NCBI RefSeq assembly: GCF_003790525.1
Contig: NZ_CP033636.1
DNA from: Escherichia coli
GTDB lineage: Bacteria > Pseudomonadota > Gammaproteobacteria > Enterobacterales > Enterobacteriaceae
DNA length: 64,000 nucleotides
Strand: one strand, 5' to 3'
The translations under genes and the position numbers were made by a program. This document shows positions 3,323 through 18,868 of this stretch, in pieces. Under the pieces are notes generated by a model that was not told where the DNA came from, did not search any database, and saw nothing but the letters and a program-made list of their open reading frames with translations. How positions within the stretch are numbered: position 1 is the stretch's first letter; each line of letters opens with the position of its first letter.

Positions 3323-4522
3323 TCAGCGATCGGCTCGTTGCCCTGCGCCGCTCCAAAGCCCGCGACGCAGCGCCGGCAGGCAGAGCAAGTAGAGGGCAGC
3401 GCCTGCAATCCATGCCCACCCGTTCCACGTTGTTATAGAAGCCGCATAGATCGCCGTGAAGAGGAGGGGTCCGACGATCGAGGTCAGGCTGGTGAGCGCC
3501 GCCAGTGAGCCTTGCAGCTGCCCCTGACGTTCCTCATCCACCTGCCTGGACAACATTGCTTGCAGCGCCGGCATTCCGATGCCACCCGAAGCAAGCAGGA
3601 CCATGATCGGGAACGCCATCCATCCCCGTGTCGCGAAGGCAAGCAGGATGTAGCCTGTGCCGTCGGCAATCATTCCGAGCATGAGTGCCCGCCTTTCGCC
3701 GAGCCGGGCGGCTACAGGGCCGGTGATCATTGCCTGGGCGAGTGAATGCAGAATGCCAAATGCGGCAAGCGAAATGCCGATCGTGGTCGCGTCCCAGTGA
3801 AAGCGATCCTCGCCGAAAATGACCCAAAGCGCGGCCGGCACCTGTCCGACAAGTTGCATGATGAAGAAGACCGCCATCAGGGCGGCGGCGACGGTCATGC
3901 CCCGGGCCCACCGGAACGAAGCGAGCGGGTTGAGAGCCTCCCGGCGTAACGGCCGGCGTTCGCCTTTGTGCGACTCCGGCAAAAGGAAACAGCCCGTCAG
4001 GAAATTGAGGCCGTTCAAGGCTGCCGCGGCGAAGAACGGAGCGTGGGGGGAGAAACCGCCCATCAGCCCACCGAGCACAGGTCCCGCGACCATCCCGAAC
4101 CCGAAACAGGCGCTCATGAAGCCGAAGTGCCGCGCGCGCTCATCGCCATCAGTGATATCGGCAATATAAGCGCCGGCTACCGCCCCAGTCGCCCCGGTGA
4201 TGCCGGCCACGATCCGCCCGATATAGAGAACCCAAAGGAAAGGCGTCGTCGCCATGATGGCGTAGTCGACAGCAGCGCCGGCCAGCGAGACGAGCAAGAC
4301 CGGCCGCCGCCCGAAACGATCCGACAGCGCGCCCAGCACAGGTGCGCAGGCAAATTGCATCAACGCATACAGCGCCAGCAGAATGCCATAGTGGGCGGTG
4401 ACGTCGTTCGAGTGAACCAGATCGCGCAGGAGGCCCGGCAGCACCGGCATAATCAGGCCGATGCCGACAGCGTCGAGCGCGACAGTGCTCAGAATTACGA
4501 TCAGGGGTCTGTTGGGTTTCAC
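3323..4522 (-). CDS. tetA: tetracycline efflux MFS transporter TetA(A)
   Basis: Translation matches TetA(A) from recall (KPNRPLIVILSTVALDAVGIGLIMPVLPGLLRDL...); start placed at the GTG giving 399 aa; the ORF track extends 25 codons further upstream. Confidence 0.9.
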   Translation of the reverse strand: MKPNRPLIVILSTVALDAVGIGLIMPVLPGLLRDLVHSNDVTAHYGILLALYALMQFACAPVLGALSDRFGRRPVLLVSLAGAAVDYAIMATTPFLWVLYIGRIVAGITGATGAVAGAYIADITDGDERARHFGFMSACFGFGMVAGPVLGGLMGGFSPHAPFFAAAALNGLNFLTGCFLLPESHKGERRPLRREALNPLASFRWARGMTVAAALMAVFFIMQLVGQVPAALWVIFGEDRFHWDATTIGISLAAFGILHSLAQAMITGPVAARLGERRALMLGMIADGTGYILLAFATRGWMAFPIMVLLASGGIGMPALQAMLSRQVDEERQGQLQGSLAALTSLTSIVGPLLFTAIYAASITTWNGWAWIAGAALYLLCLPALRRGLWSGAGQRADR

Positions 4523-4627
4523 GTCTGGCCTCCGGACCAGCCTCCGCTGGTCCGATTGAACGCGCGGATTCTTTATCACTGATAAGTTGGTGGACATATT
4601 ATGTTTATCAGTGATAAAGTGTCAAGC
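4523..4627. promoter_or_regulatory. divergent tetA/tetR promoter-operator region
   Basis: 105-bp intergenic region between divergent tetA(A) and tetR(A); operators expected from the known TetR system, not mapped base by base. Confidence 0.6.
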
Positions 4628-5278
4628 ATGACAAAGTTGCAGCCGAATACAGTGATCCGTGCCGCCCTGGACCTGTTGAACGAGGTCGGCGTAGACGGTC
4701 TGACGACACGCAAACTGGCGGAACGGTTGGGGGTTCAGCAGCCGGCGCTTTACTGGCACTTCAGGAACAAGCGGGCGCTGCTCGACGCACTGGCCGAAGC
4801 CATGCTGGCGGAGAATCATACGCATTCGGTGCCGAGAGCCGACGACGACTGGCGCTCATTTCTGATCGGGAATGCCCGCAGCTTCAGGCAGGCGCTGCTC
4901 GCCTACCGCGATGGCGCGCGCATCCATGCCGGCACGCGACCGGGCGCACCGCAGATGGAAACGGCCGACGCGCAGCTTCGCTTCCTCTGCGAGGCGGGTT
5001 TTTCGGCCGGGGACGCCGTCAATGCGCTGATGACAATCAGCTACTTCACTGTTGGGGCCGTGCTTGAGGAGCAGGCCGGCGACAGCGATGCCGGCGAGCG
5101 CGGCGGCACCGTTGAACAGGCTCCGCTCTCGCCGCTGTTGCGGGCCGCGATAGACGCCTTCGACGAAGCCGATCCGGACGCAGCGTTCGAGCAGGGACTC
5201 GCGGTGATTGTCGATGGATTGGCGAAAAGGAGGCTCGTTGTCAGGAACGTTGAAGGACCGAGAAAGGGTGACGATTGA
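4628..5278 (+). CDS. tetR: tetracycline repressor TetR(A)
   Basis: 216-aa translation from the ATG at 4628 (MTKLQPNTVIRAALDLLNEVG...) matches TetR(A) from recall. Confidence 0.9.
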   Translation: MTKLQPNTVIRAALDLLNEVGVDGLTTRKLAERLGVQQPALYWHFRNKRALLDALAEAMLAENHTHSVPRADDDWRSFLIGNARSFRQALLAYRDGARIHAGTRPGAPQMETADAQLRFLCEAGFSAGDAVNALMTISYFTVGAVLEEQAGDSDAGERGGTVEQAPLSPLLRAAIDAFDEADPDAAFEQGLAVIVDGLAKRRLVVRNVEGPRKGDD

Positions 5279-5362
5279 TCAGGACCGCTGCCGGAGCGCA
5301 ACCCACTCACTACAGCAGAGCCATGTAGACAACATCCCCTCCCCCTTTCCACCGCGTCAGAC

Positions 5363-5391
5363 GCCCGTAGCAGCCCGCTACGGGCTTTTTC
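5363..5391 (+). terminator. putative intrinsic terminator downstream of tetR
   Basis: Hairpin GCCCGTAGC-AGCCC-GCTACGGGC followed by TTTTT, read directly. Confidence 0.45.
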
Positions 5392-5669
5392 ATGCCCTGC
5401 CCTAGCGTCCAAGCCTCACGGCCGCGCTCGGCCTCTCTGGCGGCCTTCTGGCGCTCCTGCTGCGGCGTCCGCTCGTGGGCCGTGGCGCGGGTCCGCGCGC
5501 CGGCCTCGTGCGCCTGGCGCTCGCGGGCGAGGTCCAGGGCGGCCGTCTTCACGTTCTGCCTTGCGCAGATGAGATAGGAGAGCATGAAAAACCTCGGGGC
5601 AGCCATCGAATGATGCCATCTACAGGGGTTAAAATAACCACCATCATTTCATAACAATACCTGCTGACT

Positions 5670-6260
5670 ATGAAGATCTACGTCATCAAAATAGCAGTTC
5701 ATGGAGTCAGTCCGATGGTCTGGCGTCGGCTGAGAATTGCTGCCGACACGTCACTGGCCGCGCTTCACTTCATTTTCCAGATAGTGCAGGGCTGGGGGGA
5801 CGACCATCTCCATCAATTTCACATTTATGGCAAAGATTACGGTATCTCCTACGAAGGAGGCATCGGTTTTGTCGATAATCCGTTCCGGGTCGTGATTGAT
5901 GATTTTGCTTTTGATGCTGGCGATCGCTTTACCTATGAATACAATTTCTTTGAGCACTGGCTTCATGACATTCGTGTTGAGGCCATTTATGAAAACTCTA
6001 CGCTGAAAGCGCCGTTTTGTATAAGCGGCCATGGTATGCCCGGAGCCACAGCTGCGGATGAGTTCGATAAAACCCTGGCGTTTCTTGAAGCTATCGTTAA
6101 TGCGGATGATGAAACAACGGTCGGCGAGATCCGCCCTTTTGCTGACGACCTGGATGCTGTCAGGTTCAACCGCCACAAAATCAACCGGCAACTGAGCAGG
6201 CTCGACCTTGCATCTCCGGTACTGGAGCCTGAAGTTATCTGGCTGGGCCGTCGTCGCTGA
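5670..6260 (+). CDS. pRiA4b ORF-3-like family protein, often an IS passenger gene
   Basis: 196-aa translation resembles the plasmid pRiA4b ORF-3-like family; recall-based. Confidence 0.45.
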   Translation: MKIYVIKIAVHGVSPMVWRRLRIAADTSLAALHFIFQIVQGWGDDHLHQFHIYGKDYGISYEGGIGFVDNPFRVVIDDFAFDAGDRFTYEYNFFEHWLHDIRVEAIYENSTLKAPFCISGHGMPGATAADEFDKTLAFLEAIVNADDETTVGEIRPFADDLDAVRFNRHKINRQLSRLDLASPVLEPEVIWLGRRR

Positions 6261-6396
6261 CTGATGTCTATAAAGGTATACGTTTTCAGCATGCCTCTCA
6301 GATCCCCGAAAAAATGTCTATAAACCTCCCTAAATCAGTGTTTATGGATTATTCTTTAAATCTCTATGATGTTTAAAGACCTTCCGGAGGTTTTGC

Positions 6397-6969
6397 GTGC
6401 AATATGCCTACATCAGGGTAAGCTCGGCCGATCAGAATACGGCCCGTCAGGAAGAGGCATTGTCAAAGGCGGGTTTTCAGCCTGATAAAATTTGTGTTGA
6501 GCATGCCAGCGCGAAGGACACAAACCGCCCGGGGTTACAGGAACTCCTGGGGCAATTACGCCCTGGTGATACGCTTCTGGTTCATTCCATCGATCGCCTT
6601 TGCCGGAATATGTCGGATATGTGCGCTGTCACCACCCGGCTTCGTGACCAGGGCGTTACCCTTATTTTTCTGAAAGAGCAGCTGACGTTCAGCGCCGGCA
6701 CAAACAATCCGATGCAGGAACTGCAGCTGCACATGATGTCGGCATTCAGCCAGTTTGAACGAGCCTTACTGAAGGAAAGGCAGGCCGACGGCATCGCCGC
6801 GAAAAAAGCACGGGGTGAAAAAACAGGGCGCCCCGGCGCCGATATCAAAAAGATCCAGGAAATTGACGCACTCAGAAGCAGAGGGGTCAGGCTCAGGATC
6901 GCCTGCGACCATGCGGGCCTTGGCGTTTCCACATATTATAAGCTTCGTCACCAGATGAACAACCAGTAG
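6397..6969 (+). CDS. serine recombinase (resolvase/invertase family)
   Basis: N-terminal YIRVSS catalytic-serine motif and C-terminal HTH-like region. Confidence 0.7.
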   Translation: MQYAYIRVSSADQNTARQEEALSKAGFQPDKICVEHASAKDTNRPGLQELLGQLRPGDTLLVHSIDRLCRNMSDMCAVTTRLRDQGVTLIFLKEQLTFSAGTNNPMQELQLHMMSAFSQFERALLKERQADGIAAKKARGEKTGRPGADIKKIQEIDALRSRGVRLRIACDHAGLGVSTYYKLRHQMNNQ

Positions 6970-7002
6970 CCGGGAGATAGTCATCCACCACAGCAGGAGG
7001 CA

Positions 7003-8397
7003 ATGATGCAACTGACGCTCCAGATAGTCATCACCGATGAATCAGGCTCCAGTCGAACGGAGGAACTGATGACAATCCAGAAATCAGGGGAGACCCGGAA
7101 CGACATCGGATTATCGGTGTCAGAATCCAAGCTGTTGCTGAATACGGTCCAGCAGTCGGTGGTCCAGCTGCAGGCAGACGAATATACTCAACACCATATC
7201 CGGTGCCCTCACTGCCTTGCTGCGCGCAGAATCAAAGGCAAACAGAAAATACGGTACCGGACGCTGTTTGGCGTTATTCCGGTATCCGGGCTTCGGGTGT
7301 ACCGGTGCCGTTGTGAAGAGAGTGATACAAAGACAGTCAGTTTGCTCAGCGACTGGGCCGGCGATTATTCTCACCCGGCACTGAAATATATTGAAACCCG
7401 CTGGGCCTCGATGATCTCCTATGAAATGACGACTCGTCTGCTGAAAGATATTCTGCCGGTGGGCCACAGCCTGAATGCCTCAACGGTGAGGAATCATTTA
7501 TGCCAGGTGGCGCAGCGTCTTGACGCTGAGGCTGAAGCTCATTCAGGTTTTCTTTCCGGCTGCCCCCGCGACTGGGGGAACCTGCCCAGGCCAGGAAAAC
7601 CGCTTGTGGTGGGTATAGATGGTGGTTATGTTCGCGATCGGGATGACAAAAAGCGTAATTTTGAAATTATTGCCGGGAAGTCTTTTTCCGTTGGTGCGCC
7701 TGCTGACACCCGCCGCTTCGGTTTTGTTCAGAAGGATGACTGTCATCCGGAACGCAGGCTCATGACCCACCTTTCAGCGCAGGGAATGCAGGCCAACCAG
7801 CAGATATTTTTTCTGTCCGACGGCGCGGATAATCTCAGGGACCTCCAGTTCGGTATGTACCCTGAGTCAACGCATGTGCTGGACTGGTTTCATATCACCA
7901 TGAGGCTGAAGGTGCTCATGCAATATGCCCGGGGACTGCTGGTATCAGATCCAGAGGCGGGGAGTAAAGTTCTGGCACTGCTGGAAAGCATTAAACGATA
8001 TCTCTGGCATGGCAATGTTGTCGCTGCGCTGGAACATATTGATAATTGCGTTATGTATTGCGATGACCCTGAACTCAGCTATCCTAGCCTGAAATCCCTG
8101 CAAAAACATCTGGATGAAATGTATACCTACATCCGGAATAATAAGATGATGATCCCAAACTACGGCGAAATGCGTCGGTACGGAGAGCCGGTATCAACCG
8201 CGTTTGTGGAATCCACGATCAATGAAGTGATCGCCAGACGAATGGCCAAAAAGCAGCAGATGCAGTGGAGCAGAAAAGGGGCTCATTATTTGTTACAGAC
8301 CCGGACCGCCGTTTTGAATAACGAACTGCAGGATAAATTTGTCTGCTGGTATCCGGGTTTTCAAAGTGACGGGAAGGGACCAGCGATGGCAGCATAG
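7003..8397 (+). CDS. tnp: ISKra4-family transposase (ISKpn19-like), the usual neighbour of qnrS1
   Basis: 464-aa translation recalled as ISKpn19/ISKra4-family transposase; sits upstream of qnrS1. Confidence 0.65.
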   Translation: MMQLTLQIVITDESGSSRTEELMTIQKSGETRNDIGLSVSESKLLLNTVQQSVVQLQADEYTQHHIRCPHCLAARRIKGKQKIRYRTLFGVIPVSGLRVYRCRCEESDTKTVSLLSDWAGDYSHPALKYIETRWASMISYEMTTRLLKDILPVGHSLNASTVRNHLCQVAQRLDAEAEAHSGFLSGCPRDWGNLPRPGKPLVVGIDGGYVRDRDDKKRNFEIIAGKSFSVGAPADTRRFGFVQKDDCHPERRLMTHLSAQGMQANQQIFFLSDGADNLRDLQFGMYPESTHVLDWFHITMRLKVLMQYARGLLVSDPEAGSKVLALLESIKRYLWHGNVVAALEHIDNCVMYCDDPELSYPSLKSLQKHLDEMYTYIRNNKMMIPNYGEMRRYGEPVSTAFVESTINEVIARRMAKKQQMQWSRKGAHYLLQTRTAVLNNELQDKFVCWYPGFQSDGKGPAMAA

Positions 8398-8420
8398 CTC
8401 ACGCTGCCCCAATATTTTTT

Positions 8421-8858
8421 ATGCTCTCGGTCGTATGGAAGCTGGACCGCCTCGGTCGTGATCTTCGTCATCTCATTAATACAGTGCACGACCTGACCGC
8501 GAGGGGGACCGGTCTGAAAGTGCTGACCGGTCACGGGGCGACTATCGACACAACAACGGCCGCTGGCAAGCTTGTCTTCGGTATCTTTGCCGCACTGGCG
8601 GAGTTTGAGCGCGAACTGATTGCTGAAAGAACGACTGCAGGTCTGGCATCAGCAAGAGCCCGTGGGCGGAACGGCGGCCGACCTTATAAAATGACGCCAG
8701 TCAAACTGCGACTGGCAATGGCATCAATGGGACAATCAGAAACAAAGGTCAGTACGCTATGCCAGGAACTTGGGATAACCCGGCAAACTTTGTACAGGCA
8801 TATTTCCCCTGTTGGTCAACTGCGGGCGGACGGGATCAAGCTGCTCAACCGTGGATAA
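8421..8858 (+). pseudogene. serine recombinase/resolvase fragment lacking the N-terminal catalytic region
   Basis: Translation has the resolvase central and C-terminal HTH portions but no catalytic serine region; starts right after the ISKra4-family transposase. Confidence 0.6.
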
Positions 8859-9176
8859 TTTGAACGGACGGAAAAATCTGGGGTTCCGGCGTAGTACCCC
8901 TATCACCTCCACATTTTTGCAACAGTGCCTTATAAATGGCAGCCTTATGTTTACTTGCCAAGATGGGCTACCATATGATGTTTTATACTGAGCAATATTA
9001 ATATTATCTTTAATGGAAAAATTAAGCCCACTAAGTGACCCACTGCTATATGGCTCTATTGTGAAGACGCCTGAGGGTAAAAATTTATACATGGTTGTCC
9101 CTATGTCTATTATTGCAAGGTTGACAATATTATTCGTTTTATAAATTTGAGCGTTTAAAATCACACATCAAAGCAA

Positions 9177-9833
9177 TTAGTCAGGATAAACAACAATACC
9201 CAGTGCTTCGAGAATCAGTTCTTGCTGCCAGGCTGCAATTTTGATACCTGATGTATCGACTTTGCGGGGATCTAAACCGTCGAGTTCGGCGTGGCATAAA
9301 TTGGCACCCTGTAGGCTAAATTGCCCCCAGACATCTTCGGAAAAAACACCTCGACTTAAGTCTGACTCTTTCAGTGATGCACCCGCTAGGTTCGTTCCTA
9401 TCCAGCGATTTTCAAACAACTCACATTTTTCTAAACAAACCCTCTCCATATTGGCATAGGAAAGATTACATCCAGAAATAAATGCTGAGCAAAAGTACAT
9501 ACGATTACTCACTTGATGGGCAAAGTTTGTTCGGGAAAAGTTGGCACCTTTTAAATCACACGCACGGAACTCTATACCGTAGCAATTGGCATTACTGAAG
9601 TTTGCCATCGCAAGTTGGCATTGTTGGAAACTTGCATCACGAAGATCTGCGACATCAAAGTGGCAGCCTTCGATATCACCCTGTTCAATGAACTTGCAGT
9701 TGACGAATGTCGTATCACGCAAGTTAGCACGTCGAAAGTCGCTGCGAATGAATGTGCAAGCGGTGAAGGTGAGATCACTTAAGTCTTTATGTGAAAAGTT
9801 GTGGTGCCGATATGTATGATTGTAGGTTTCCAT
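9177..9833 (-). CDS. qnrS1: pentapeptide-repeat quinolone-resistance protein QnrS1
   Basis: 218-aa translation (METYNHTYRHHNFSHKDLSDLTFTACTF...ALGIVVYPD) matches QnrS1 from recall; tandem pentapeptide repeats visible. Confidence 0.9.
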   Translation of the reverse strand: METYNHTYRHHNFSHKDLSDLTFTACTFIRSDFRRANLRDTTFVNCKFIEQGDIEGCHFDVADLRDASFQQCQLAMANFSNANCYGIEFRACDLKGANFSRTNFAHQVSNRMYFCSAFISGCNLSYANMERVCLEKCELFENRWIGTNLAGASLKESDLSRGVFSEDVWGQFSLQGANLCHAELDGLDPRKVDTSGIKIAAWQQELILEALGIVVYPD

Positions 9834-18830: not shown

Positions 18831-18868
18831 CTTAACGTGAGTTTTCGTTCCACTGAGCGTCAGACCCC
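18831..18868. repeat. 38-bp terminal inverted repeat of Tn3 (bla-proximal end)
   Basis: CTTAACGTGAGTTTTCGTTCCACTGAGCGTCAGACCCC read directly; reverse complement of the Tn3 IR. Confidence 0.85.

Follow-up and report, generated by a model that had tools for sequence, protein, structure and literature searches.

Genes and boundaries of the element

The window analysed here, a 64,000-nt stretch of Escherichia coli DNA, carries at 5578-8428 (+ strand) a 2,851-bp unit annotated as a complete ISKpn19 (ISKra4 family, ISAzba1 group). Three adjoining genes, all on the + strand, lie within it: a gene for a PRiA4_ORF3 family protein (5670-6260, 196 aa, referred to here as ORF3), a small serine recombinase gene of the resolvase/invertase type (6397-6969, 190 aa) and an ISKra4-family DDE transposase gene (7003-8397, 464 aa, or 463 aa if the second ATG at 7006 is used). 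This arrangement agrees with the initial annotation, which had described an ORF3-like gene and a complete serine recombinase next to, and on the same strand as, an ISKra4-family transposase. ORF3 matched the Pfam family PF07929 (PRiA4_ORF3) with E 8e-32 and 110.7 bits, the cut-off being 26.6, and it covers model positions 1-171 of 173; PHROGs and NCBIfam gave no family match. Its sole relative in the PDB is 2i1s, a 'hypothetical protein' (E 2e-12), and because that alignment begins at residue 2, sequence comparison supports a start at 5670 over the PGAP alternative at 5715. A relative of ORF3 carries the NCBI name 'IS1096 element passenger TnpR family protein', and IS1096 of Mycobacterium smegmatis (tnpA plus a 'tnpR' passenger) has a passenger of the PRiA4_ORF3 family, as ISKpn19 does. 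The IS1096 transposase belongs to a different family from that of ISKpn19, and the IS1096 'TnpR' is not known to be a serine recombinase.

The recombinase gene is full length and matched PF00239 (Resolvase) over residues 3-141 (E 1e-39), and its PDB matches were the Gin invertase (4m6f, E 3e-24), the Tn3 resolvase (5cy1, E 2e-16) and the gamma-delta resolvase (E ~5e-15). Ser9 and the DRLxR motif align to all three of these proteins and the catalytic residues are intact; against Gin, Arg7, Ser9 and D65-R66...R69 are aligned and the alignment reaches residue 183, across the DNA-binding region. The protein is 36% identical to the adjoining Tn3-type resolvase and has the small serine recombinase layout, with an N-terminal catalytic domain and a C-terminal helix-turn-helix. 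In IS607-type transposases the helix-turn-helix precedes the catalytic domain. An IS607-type serine transposase was accordingly rejected as the mobility enzyme, given a score of 25.7 bits against a cut-off of 110 and the N-terminal position of the catalytic domain. The DDE transposase, a prokaryotic Mutator-like enzyme (p-MULT 4), matched NCBIfam NF033572 well above the cut-off (380.7 bits against 205, E 1e-113), and PGAP names it 'ISKra4-like element ISKpn19 family transposase'. A promoter and terminator scan of 5400-8600 gave nothing over the shuffle background that clarifies expression of these genes.

A repeat search of the window recovered an imperfect pair of 26-nt inverted repeats (22/26, 85% complementary, arms 2,799 nt apart) that encloses all three genes, and its arms equal the published left and right ends: IRL, GAGAGCATGAAAAACCTCGGGGCAGC, at 5578-5603 (+) and IRR, GCTGCCCCAATATTTTTTATGCTCTC, at 8403-8428 (+). 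The termini read 5'-GAGAG...CTCTC-3', with the 3' end reading ...GCTCTC. The unit matched the reference copy of the Klebsiella pneumoniae plasmid pK245 (NC_010886.1, 35120-37970) at 2851/2851 nt, with the same repeats and the same three ORFs; only the flanks differ. In ISfinder practice, an isoform has more than 95% nucleotide identity to the reference, and the window copy is 100% identical to that of pK245. An allele difference was observed at window position 7910, where both of these copies have A and the majority allele of other plasmids has C, giving K303T in the transposase.

Length and inverted repeats also agree with the values in Table S1 of Guerillot et al., 2014 (PMC3942029), where the ISKpn19 entry gives 2851 bp, an IR of 26 nt with 22 matches and the extra ORFs 'pRiA4b_ORF-3, S Recomb'; the placement in the ISAzba1 group and p-MULT 4 is taken from the same entry. 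The 26-nt repeats ending in C fit the criterion for the ISKra4 family, whose terminal inverted repeats are 18-39 bp long with a conserved terminal cytosine (PMC3942029). The proposal that ORF3 and the recombinase are passengers inside the element was thus borne out by repeats that include 5670-6969, and ISKpn19 boundaries excluding that interval, named beforehand as the contrary outcome, did not occur. The extent first assigned, 5670-8420, held all three genes and stopped short of the true ends at 5578 and 8428.

These ends are not a chance inverted repeat, because the 2,851-bp unit has identical termini in about 20 unrelated contexts, and because matches in other plasmids to the left flank alone end exactly at 5577 and matches to the right flank alone begin exactly at 8429. 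The same observations bear on the alternative that the insertion sequence consists of the transposase gene alone, bounded by nearby ends, and that the recombinase and the ORF3-like gene are flanking plasmid DNA. A transposase-only makeup is usual for insertion sequences, and the ends of the window copy are not marked by a target duplication. Against this, no inverted-repeat partner of 8403-8428 lies near 6970-7002, the full unit is invariant over those unrelated flanks with 9-bp duplications bracketing six of the copies, and it is identical to the reference ISKpn19, whose structure as published in Table S1 includes both ORFs (PMC3942029). We give the transposase-only alternative almost no chance, and we read 5578-8428 as one intact ISKpn19 with both upstream ORFs integral to it rather than flanking DNA (probability about 0.93). 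The passenger-gene interpretation is correct but not new, as the three-gene structure of ISKpn19 is already catalogued.

Flanks of the window copy and target sites of ISKpn19

To the right of ISKpn19 lies a Tn3-family resolvase gene reduced to its 3' 430 nt (truncated tnpR, 8429-8858, + strand, PF00239), which belongs to the qnrS1 platform and not to the insertion sequence. This remnant covers PF00239 model positions 68-144 only. The intact 615-bp gene is present in plasmid pKO200862_3 and in one further record (L026); the break falls after nt 185, with loss of the catalytic serine, and PGAP calls the remnant a pseudogene in three other records (L009-L011). Truncation of the resolvase by the element, as first proposed, is therefore real, with the junction at 8428/8429 rather than 8421; the ORF called from 8421 begins at an ATG inside IRR. 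The ISKpn19-truncated tnpR-qnrS1 platform has been described as widely found (PMC5034289). To the left lies the tet(A) module of Tn1721, whose sequence runs precisely up to the tip of IRR-I, an internal inverted repeat. In an uninterrupted Tn1721 (L007), ATGAGATAG is followed directly by the 38-bp IRR-I (GGGAGCCCGCAGAATTCGG...), and by this comparison ATGAGATAG at 5569-5577 of the window represents what was once the left half of a 9-bp target site. Alignment with ISKpn19 had been suggested earlier for finding the inverted repeats and the target duplication; both repeats were located, but the window copy has no duplication (left 9-mer ATGAGATAG, right 9-mer GGTCGTATG), because its flanks have separate origins.

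One criterion of the ISKra4 family is an insertion site flanked by direct repeats of 8 or 9 bp (PMC3942029), and Table S1 of the same study gives DR 0 for the reference ISKpn19 and also for other ORF3-carrying relatives. In our comparison, a 9-bp target duplication surrounds the whole three-gene unit in six copies (L013, L014, L016, L021, L022 and L023), and since these duplications lie outside all three genes, ISKpn19 moves as a whole three-gene unit. ISKpn19 insertion recurs at one kind of site: in at least 13 independent events the element has gone in at the outer tip of a 38-bp inverted repeat of the Tn3 family, where the 9-bp duplication consists of 8 flank bases and the first G of the repeat. 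The repeats targeted would include those of Tn3/Tn2, Tn21/TnAs3, Tn1696-like elements, Tn6322 and both ends of Tn1721, and IRR appears almost always to face the targeted repeat. On balance we lean slightly toward a site-specific ISKpn19, with primary insertions at the outer tips of Tn3-family repeats and copies without duplications, that of the window included, as putative secondary outcomes of recombination or deletion acting through the IS. ORF3 or the recombinase may be the factor that selects the target.

Tn21-family transposons reportedly serve as targets of IS4321 and IS5075 (IS1111 group) at their 38-bp terminal inverted repeats (Partridge and Hall, 2003), and ISKpn19 resembles them in landing repeatedly at Tn21-family 38-bp repeats. 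IS4321 and IS5075 insert inside the repeat, have a DEDD transposase and are not known to make a target duplication, whereas ISKpn19 enters at the outer tip, generates a 9-bp duplication and also uses repeats of the Tn3/Tn2 and Tn1721 types. In the literature searched, no description was found of any such targeting by ISKpn19.

Other searches concerned copies without duplications. The flanks of four copies (L001-L004) were contiguous in no plasmid among the matches listed, a spread sample, and these copies therefore sit at seams. In the two-copy plasmid pKPC2_095005, a split duplication was not found: the copies are inverted, and both the outer and the inner flanks mismatch. Chromosomal E. coli copies were considered as simple insertions and rejected, since all three examined lie inside resistance islands, and the tet(A)-IS-qnrS1 block of the window recurs in two of them. 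Exact-match scans with the IRR 26-mer gave 0 hits in GTDB representative genomes and 0 in JGI metagenomes.

For the window copy, the left (IRL) junction is best read as the left half of an ISKpn19 insertion at the tip of Tn1721 IRR-I and the right (IRR) junction is the widespread ISKpn19-truncated tnpR-qnrS1 junction, the two having probably been joined via recombination between two ISKpn19 copies or by IS-mediated deletion. The presumed ancestral copy, ATGAGATAG-ISKpn19-ATGAGATAG-IRR-I, was absent from PLSDB, and the 5' half of the resolvase gene was not found adjoining IRL, the sole near match (L017) being cut 106 bp further on. It could be argued that the copy never transposed as a unit here and that IS26 or Tn3-family elements joined tet(A), ISKpn19 and qnrS1 fragments at the IS ends, as IS26 and Tn3-family remnants are plentiful near the window copy and the tet(A)-ISKpn19-truncated tnpR-qnrS1 arrangement recurs as a block in plasmids and E. 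coli chromosomes. We consider such assembly quite improbable. The junctions on both sides coincide exactly with the IS tips and not with IS26 or Tn3 ends, and the arrangement on the left is precisely that seen in 12 other ISKpn19 insertions at Tn3-family IR tips; these features point to an order of events in which ISKpn19 inserted first and exchange or deletion by way of the IS itself came afterwards. The route of exchange may have been homologous recombination, site-specific recombination or IS-mediated deletion.

Possible roles of the passenger genes

In the proposed mechanism, the DDE transposase would carry out cutting and joining, and the serine recombinase would act on a candidate res-like site in the 136-bp intergenic region upstream of its gene (6261-6396, + strand), resolving cointegrates or recombining two copies, like tnpR and res of Tn3. 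Support for the candidate site comes from motifs counted post hoc: TGTYTA occurs four times in this region (6265, 6315, 6339 and 6370, all on the + strand) and is absent from the rest of the 2,851 bp on either strand. The same region has two occurrences of TGTCTATAAA, and a GTATAC palindrome lies at 6276-6281. All four TGTYTA half-sites are in direct orientation, unlike the inverted pairs typical of resolvase sites, and no inverted half-site pairs were recognised in 6261-6396. In a 91%-identical variant of the element (L018), the intergenic region is no more conserved than the coding sequence (92.6% against 85.8-95.5%).

The likeness to the Tn3 family (tnpA, tnpR and res) lies in the pairing of a DDE transposase with a small serine recombinase, whose gene in both cases follows a short non-coding region. 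The two differ in that the ISKpn19 transposase is Mutator-like, in contrast to Tn3 TnpA, its 26-nt inverted repeats are unrelated to those of Tn3, its target duplication is 9 bp rather than the 5 bp of Tn3, and Tn3 has a res site where ISKpn19 has a candidate res-like region only. Cointegrate resolution is also the role that Guerillot et al. proposed for the recombinase, by analogy with Tn3 (PMC3942029). By this analogy, action on the candidate site, resolving cointegrates or recombining two copies, appears the likeliest role, although we hold it at roughly even odds. A counterpoint comes from the target duplications: with efficient Tn3-like resolution most copies should keep them, and 0/5 copies sampled without bias did so.

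The shortage of duplications also fits a different account, in which both ORFs lie inside ISKpn19 but are cargo that takes no part in moving it; the recombinase could then be a captured invertase or resolvase that acts elsewhere, and ORF3 an unrelated hitch-hiker. The best PDB match of the recombinase is indeed the DNA invertase Gin and not a resolvase, 6261-6396 is devoid of recognised inverted half-site pairs, and the recombinase is missing in relatives such as a Nitrosomonas element (L030, ORF3-transposase) and ISAra2, an element of the same family branch as ISKpn19 for which Table S1 lists ORF3 and no recombinase (PMC3942029). The wider family speaks otherwise. ORF3 is common to a monophyletic set of 12 elements, five of which independently keep a serine recombinase, and in one of the 12 a tyrosine recombinase replaces it (PMC3942029); this retention and replacement therefore argues for a selected recombination function. 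A Vibrio relative (L029) retains the order ORF3-resolvase-transposase at 58% ORF3 identity, and the recombinase has kept its catalytic residues in a copy shared without change by hundreds of plasmids. Passive cargo thus seems rather unlikely to us.

Further relatives are similar in structure. ISAfe13 and ISCot1 of the ISAzba1 group have pRiA4b_ORF-3 and a serine recombinase like ISKpn19, and together with ISAra2 they are of similar size (2,868, 2,802 and 2,535 bp, respectively) with termini also GAGAG/CTCTC, in hosts that differ from those of ISKpn19 (Acidithiobacillus, Odyssella and Agrobacterium, respectively), as entered in Table S1 (PMC3942029). Both the Vibrio and the Nitrosomonas relatives have a homologous IRL, about 90 bp upstream of ORF3. 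As relatives that have no recombinase keep it, ORF3 is probably a conserved core passenger of this branch of the ISKra4 family, judging from sequence comparison. Our guess is that it has an accessory or regulatory function and might help to choose the target.

Distribution and significance

ISKpn19 was found in 718 of 5,426 complete E. coli genomes (13%). Among plasmids, a 3,251-bp query (window 5378-8628, which takes in the element and 200 bp to either side) was matched over at least 80% of its length by at least 1,756 records. The element is among the commonest adjoining qnrS1, tet(A), blaKPC and blaOXA-181, and knowing the 2,851-bp three-gene unit avoids both labelling the two ORFs as plasmid genes and misplacing breakpoints. 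The IR-tip targeting, a by-product of this analysis, could matter more than the annotation itself. If true, homing to the tips of Tn3-family repeats together with exchange of flanks would explain why ISKpn19 is so frequent at the seams of resistance mosaics, and it would give a testable role to the widespread, uncharacterised PRiA4_ORF3 protein family.

Ends and gene content of ISKpn19

The best inverted repeat in window 5200-8900 was a 26-nt pair (22/26; 5578-5603 and 8403-8428) spanning 2,851 bp, the left (IRL) and right (IRR) inverted repeats of ISKpn19. When window 5378-8628 was compared with 72,556 plasmids by megablast, matches started at 5578 or a few bases before and stopped at 8428; matches to the left flank alone stopped at 5577 and those to the right flank alone began at 8429. 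Identical tips occurred amid unrelated flanks in other replicons (L001-L004, L008, L011-L017, L020-L023 and L028), with a perfect 9-bp direct repeat just outside both tips in six copies of that set. The window copy was also identical at 2851/2851 positions to the copy of pK245, the source of the ISKpn19 definition. Taken together, the plasmid match limits, shared tips, 9-bp repeats and pK245 identity establish 5578 and 8428 as the element ends.

The initial annotation had proposed that a pRiA4b ORF-3-like gene and a complete serine recombinase gene upstream of an ISKra4-family transposase might be passengers of the element. All three gene identities were borne out: a PRiA4_ORF3 protein (ORF3; 5670-6260, 196 aa; PF07929, E 8e-32), a serine recombinase (6397-6969, 190 aa; PF00239, E 1e-39) and the transposase (7003-8397; NF033572, score 380.7 bits, cut-off 205). 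Over its whole length the recombinase can be aligned with Gin invertase (E 3e-24), and also with Tn3 and gamma-delta resolvases, and this alignment showed that the nucleophilic serine and DRLxR motif are kept; the sole structural relative of ORF3 was 2i1s, itself uncharacterised. Both upstream genes are enclosed by the ends at 5578-8428, in agreement with Table S1 of Guerillot et al. (2014; PMC3942029). That study assigns ISKpn19 to the p-MULT 4 / ISAzba1 group, and the table lists 2851 as TE length, 22 matches over an IR length of 26, DR 0, a transposase of 463 aa and the entry “Additional ORF: pRiA4b_ORF-3, S Recomb”; its printed IR sequences agree with those of the window. The two ORFs are thus part of ISKpn19, as had been correctly read, and this is already documented.

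The one base that sets the window copy apart from most other ISKpn19 copies is at window position 7910, which is A in the window and the pK245 reference and C in L002-L004, the copies covered by base-by-base comparison. With C, residue 303 of the transposase becomes T instead of K; the alleles correspond to PGAP WP_001493761.1 and WP_014839878.1. The copy in L001 (3001-5850) is 2,850 bp, one base less than the others, and its ISKra4 transposase has no annotation in the record, suggestive of a frameshift.

Passenger genes and a possible mechanism

According to PMC3942029, 12 ISAzba1-group elements have the pRiA4 ORF in common. Homologues of ORF3, sharing 56-93% identity with it, occur commonly among Enterobacterales, Vibrio and Nitrosomonas. 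A Vibrio contig keeps the ORF3-resolvase-transposase order of ISKpn19, whereas a Nitrosomonas contig carries ORF3-transposase without the recombinase; in both, a GAGAGCATAAAAAAGTG..GGG terminus lies ~90 bp upstream of ORF3. From these gene sets, ORF3 is the passenger that stays constant, and the recombinase, though frequent, is dispensable. The 91%-identical variant of L018 shares no more than 66% identity with ISKpn19 over its left 92 bp. Upstream of this variant are two ~256-bp elements (L018 354-609 and 2564-2819), each bounded by Tn3-family-type 38-bp repeats (GGGGTTTGA...ACGCTAAG), that look like MITEs.

The mobile unit is the three-gene unit, which makes 9-bp duplications and whose copies often lie at seams between unrelated DNA. 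Movement would be catalysed by the DDE transposase; the recombinase may act on a site within 6261-6396, resolving cointegrates or recombining ISKpn19 copies, and ORF3 could be an accessory factor. Within ISKpn19, TGTYTA is confined to this intergenic stretch, where it occurs four times (6265, 6315, 6339, 6370; all + strand), together with two copies of TGTCTATAAA, the first followed by a GTATAC palindrome. These motifs make 6261-6396 a candidate region for binding of the recombinase or for crossover. Weak points of this mechanism are the direct orientation of the TGTYTA motifs, the lack of conservation contrast over 6261-6396 in the L018 variant, and the rarity of duplication-bearing copies.

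Flanks of the window copy

The window opens with 16 kb of typical multiresistance mosaic, in which G+C falls from ~0.65 to ~0.50 near 5.5 kb. A Tn1721-type 38-bp inverted repeat (89-126) is followed by a truncated Tn3-family tnpA (122-1942, − strand), an EamA/DMT transporter gene, tet(A) (3323-4597, − strand) and tetR (4601-5278). Downstream of ISKpn19 are a truncated resolvase (8429-8858), a pentapeptide-repeat gene (9177-9833; annotated QnrS1 in identical loci) and, beyond it, an IS3-type fragment, then IS26 and integron cassettes. A Tn3/Tn2-type 38-bp repeat is present on the minus strand at 18831-18868. The repeat at 89-126, adjoining the truncated tnpA, is most likely IRR-II of Tn1721. 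Neither IRR-I nor the Tn1722 part of Tn1721 is present in the window, which leaves IRR-II and ISKpn19 as the two borders of the tet module.

On the left, ISKpn19 is flanked by the Tn1721 tet(A) module; in an uninterrupted Tn1721 (L007), the 9-mer ATGAGATAG (window 5569-5577) runs straight into the internal IRR-I, GGGAGCCCGCAGAATTCGG... On the right is a Tn3-type resolvase gene. L005 and L026 carry this gene intact; in the window it is cut after nt 185, and 8430-8855 matches the resolvase domain at model positions 68-144 only. Truncation of a resolvase by the element, initially placed at about 8421, was therefore upheld, with the position corrected to a remnant at 8429-8858. An ATG at 8421, inside IRR, is in frame with this remnant. 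The resulting 145-aa ORF (8421-8858) retains the C-terminal DNA-binding part but not the catalytic serine, and is a PGAP pseudogene in identical loci. As its two flanks are unrelated, the window copy is hybrid-flanked and hence has no target-site duplication. The block with both flanks also occurs in other plasmids and E. coli chromosomes, and truncated ISEcl2-qnrS1-truncated tnpR-ISKpn19 is a widely found platform (PMC5034289); an ancestral full ISKpn19 insertion at IRR-I was not found in PLSDB. Comparison of window 8429 with L005, L017 and L026 shows that one Tn3-like tnpR-tnpA module beside qnrS1 has three different ISKpn19 junctions within ~1 kb. The window junction follows nt 185 of tnpR, that of L017 (IRL side) lies 106 bp further along tnpR, and that of L002/L026 (IRL side) is at the adjacent tnpA 5′ end.

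Insertion at the tips of Tn3-family repeats

The search for the missing partner junction turned up many independent sites at which 9 bp separate IRR from the outer tip of a Tn3-family 38-bp repeat. Such junctions (window 5569-5577; loci L012-L017 and L020-L025) amount to 13 sites, each with a 9-mer of its own, and involve six repeat sequences, the repeat types being Tn1721 tnpA-end, Tn1721 mcp-end, Tn21/TnAs3, Tn6322, Tn1696-like mer end and Tn3/Tn2. The 9-bp target comprises 8 flank bases and the first G of the repeat, the ninth base being that G at every site, and IRR faces the repeat in 13/13; a 14th site, L011-left, has equal spacing with the IS orientation reversed. Intact 9-bp duplications were present at 6 of the 13, in contrast to the DR 0 of the published table.

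Because queries containing a repeat had yielded most of these cases, a sample chosen without bias was then examined. Including the window, a repeat came directly after the 9-mer in three of five left flanks, and the remaining two were also Tn3-family DNA (in one a tnpA 5′ end, in the other the remnant of a repeat). The 9-mer runs directly into a Tn1721 repeat in the empty site L025 (for L003) and into a Tn3-type repeat in the empty site L024 (for L004). Where the IRR-side flank was other than a Tn3-family repeat, duplications were found in none of six contexts. The searchable literature holds no mention of ISKpn19 targeting repeat tips, which is no proof of being unpublished; this target choice is the sole part of the present findings that may be new.
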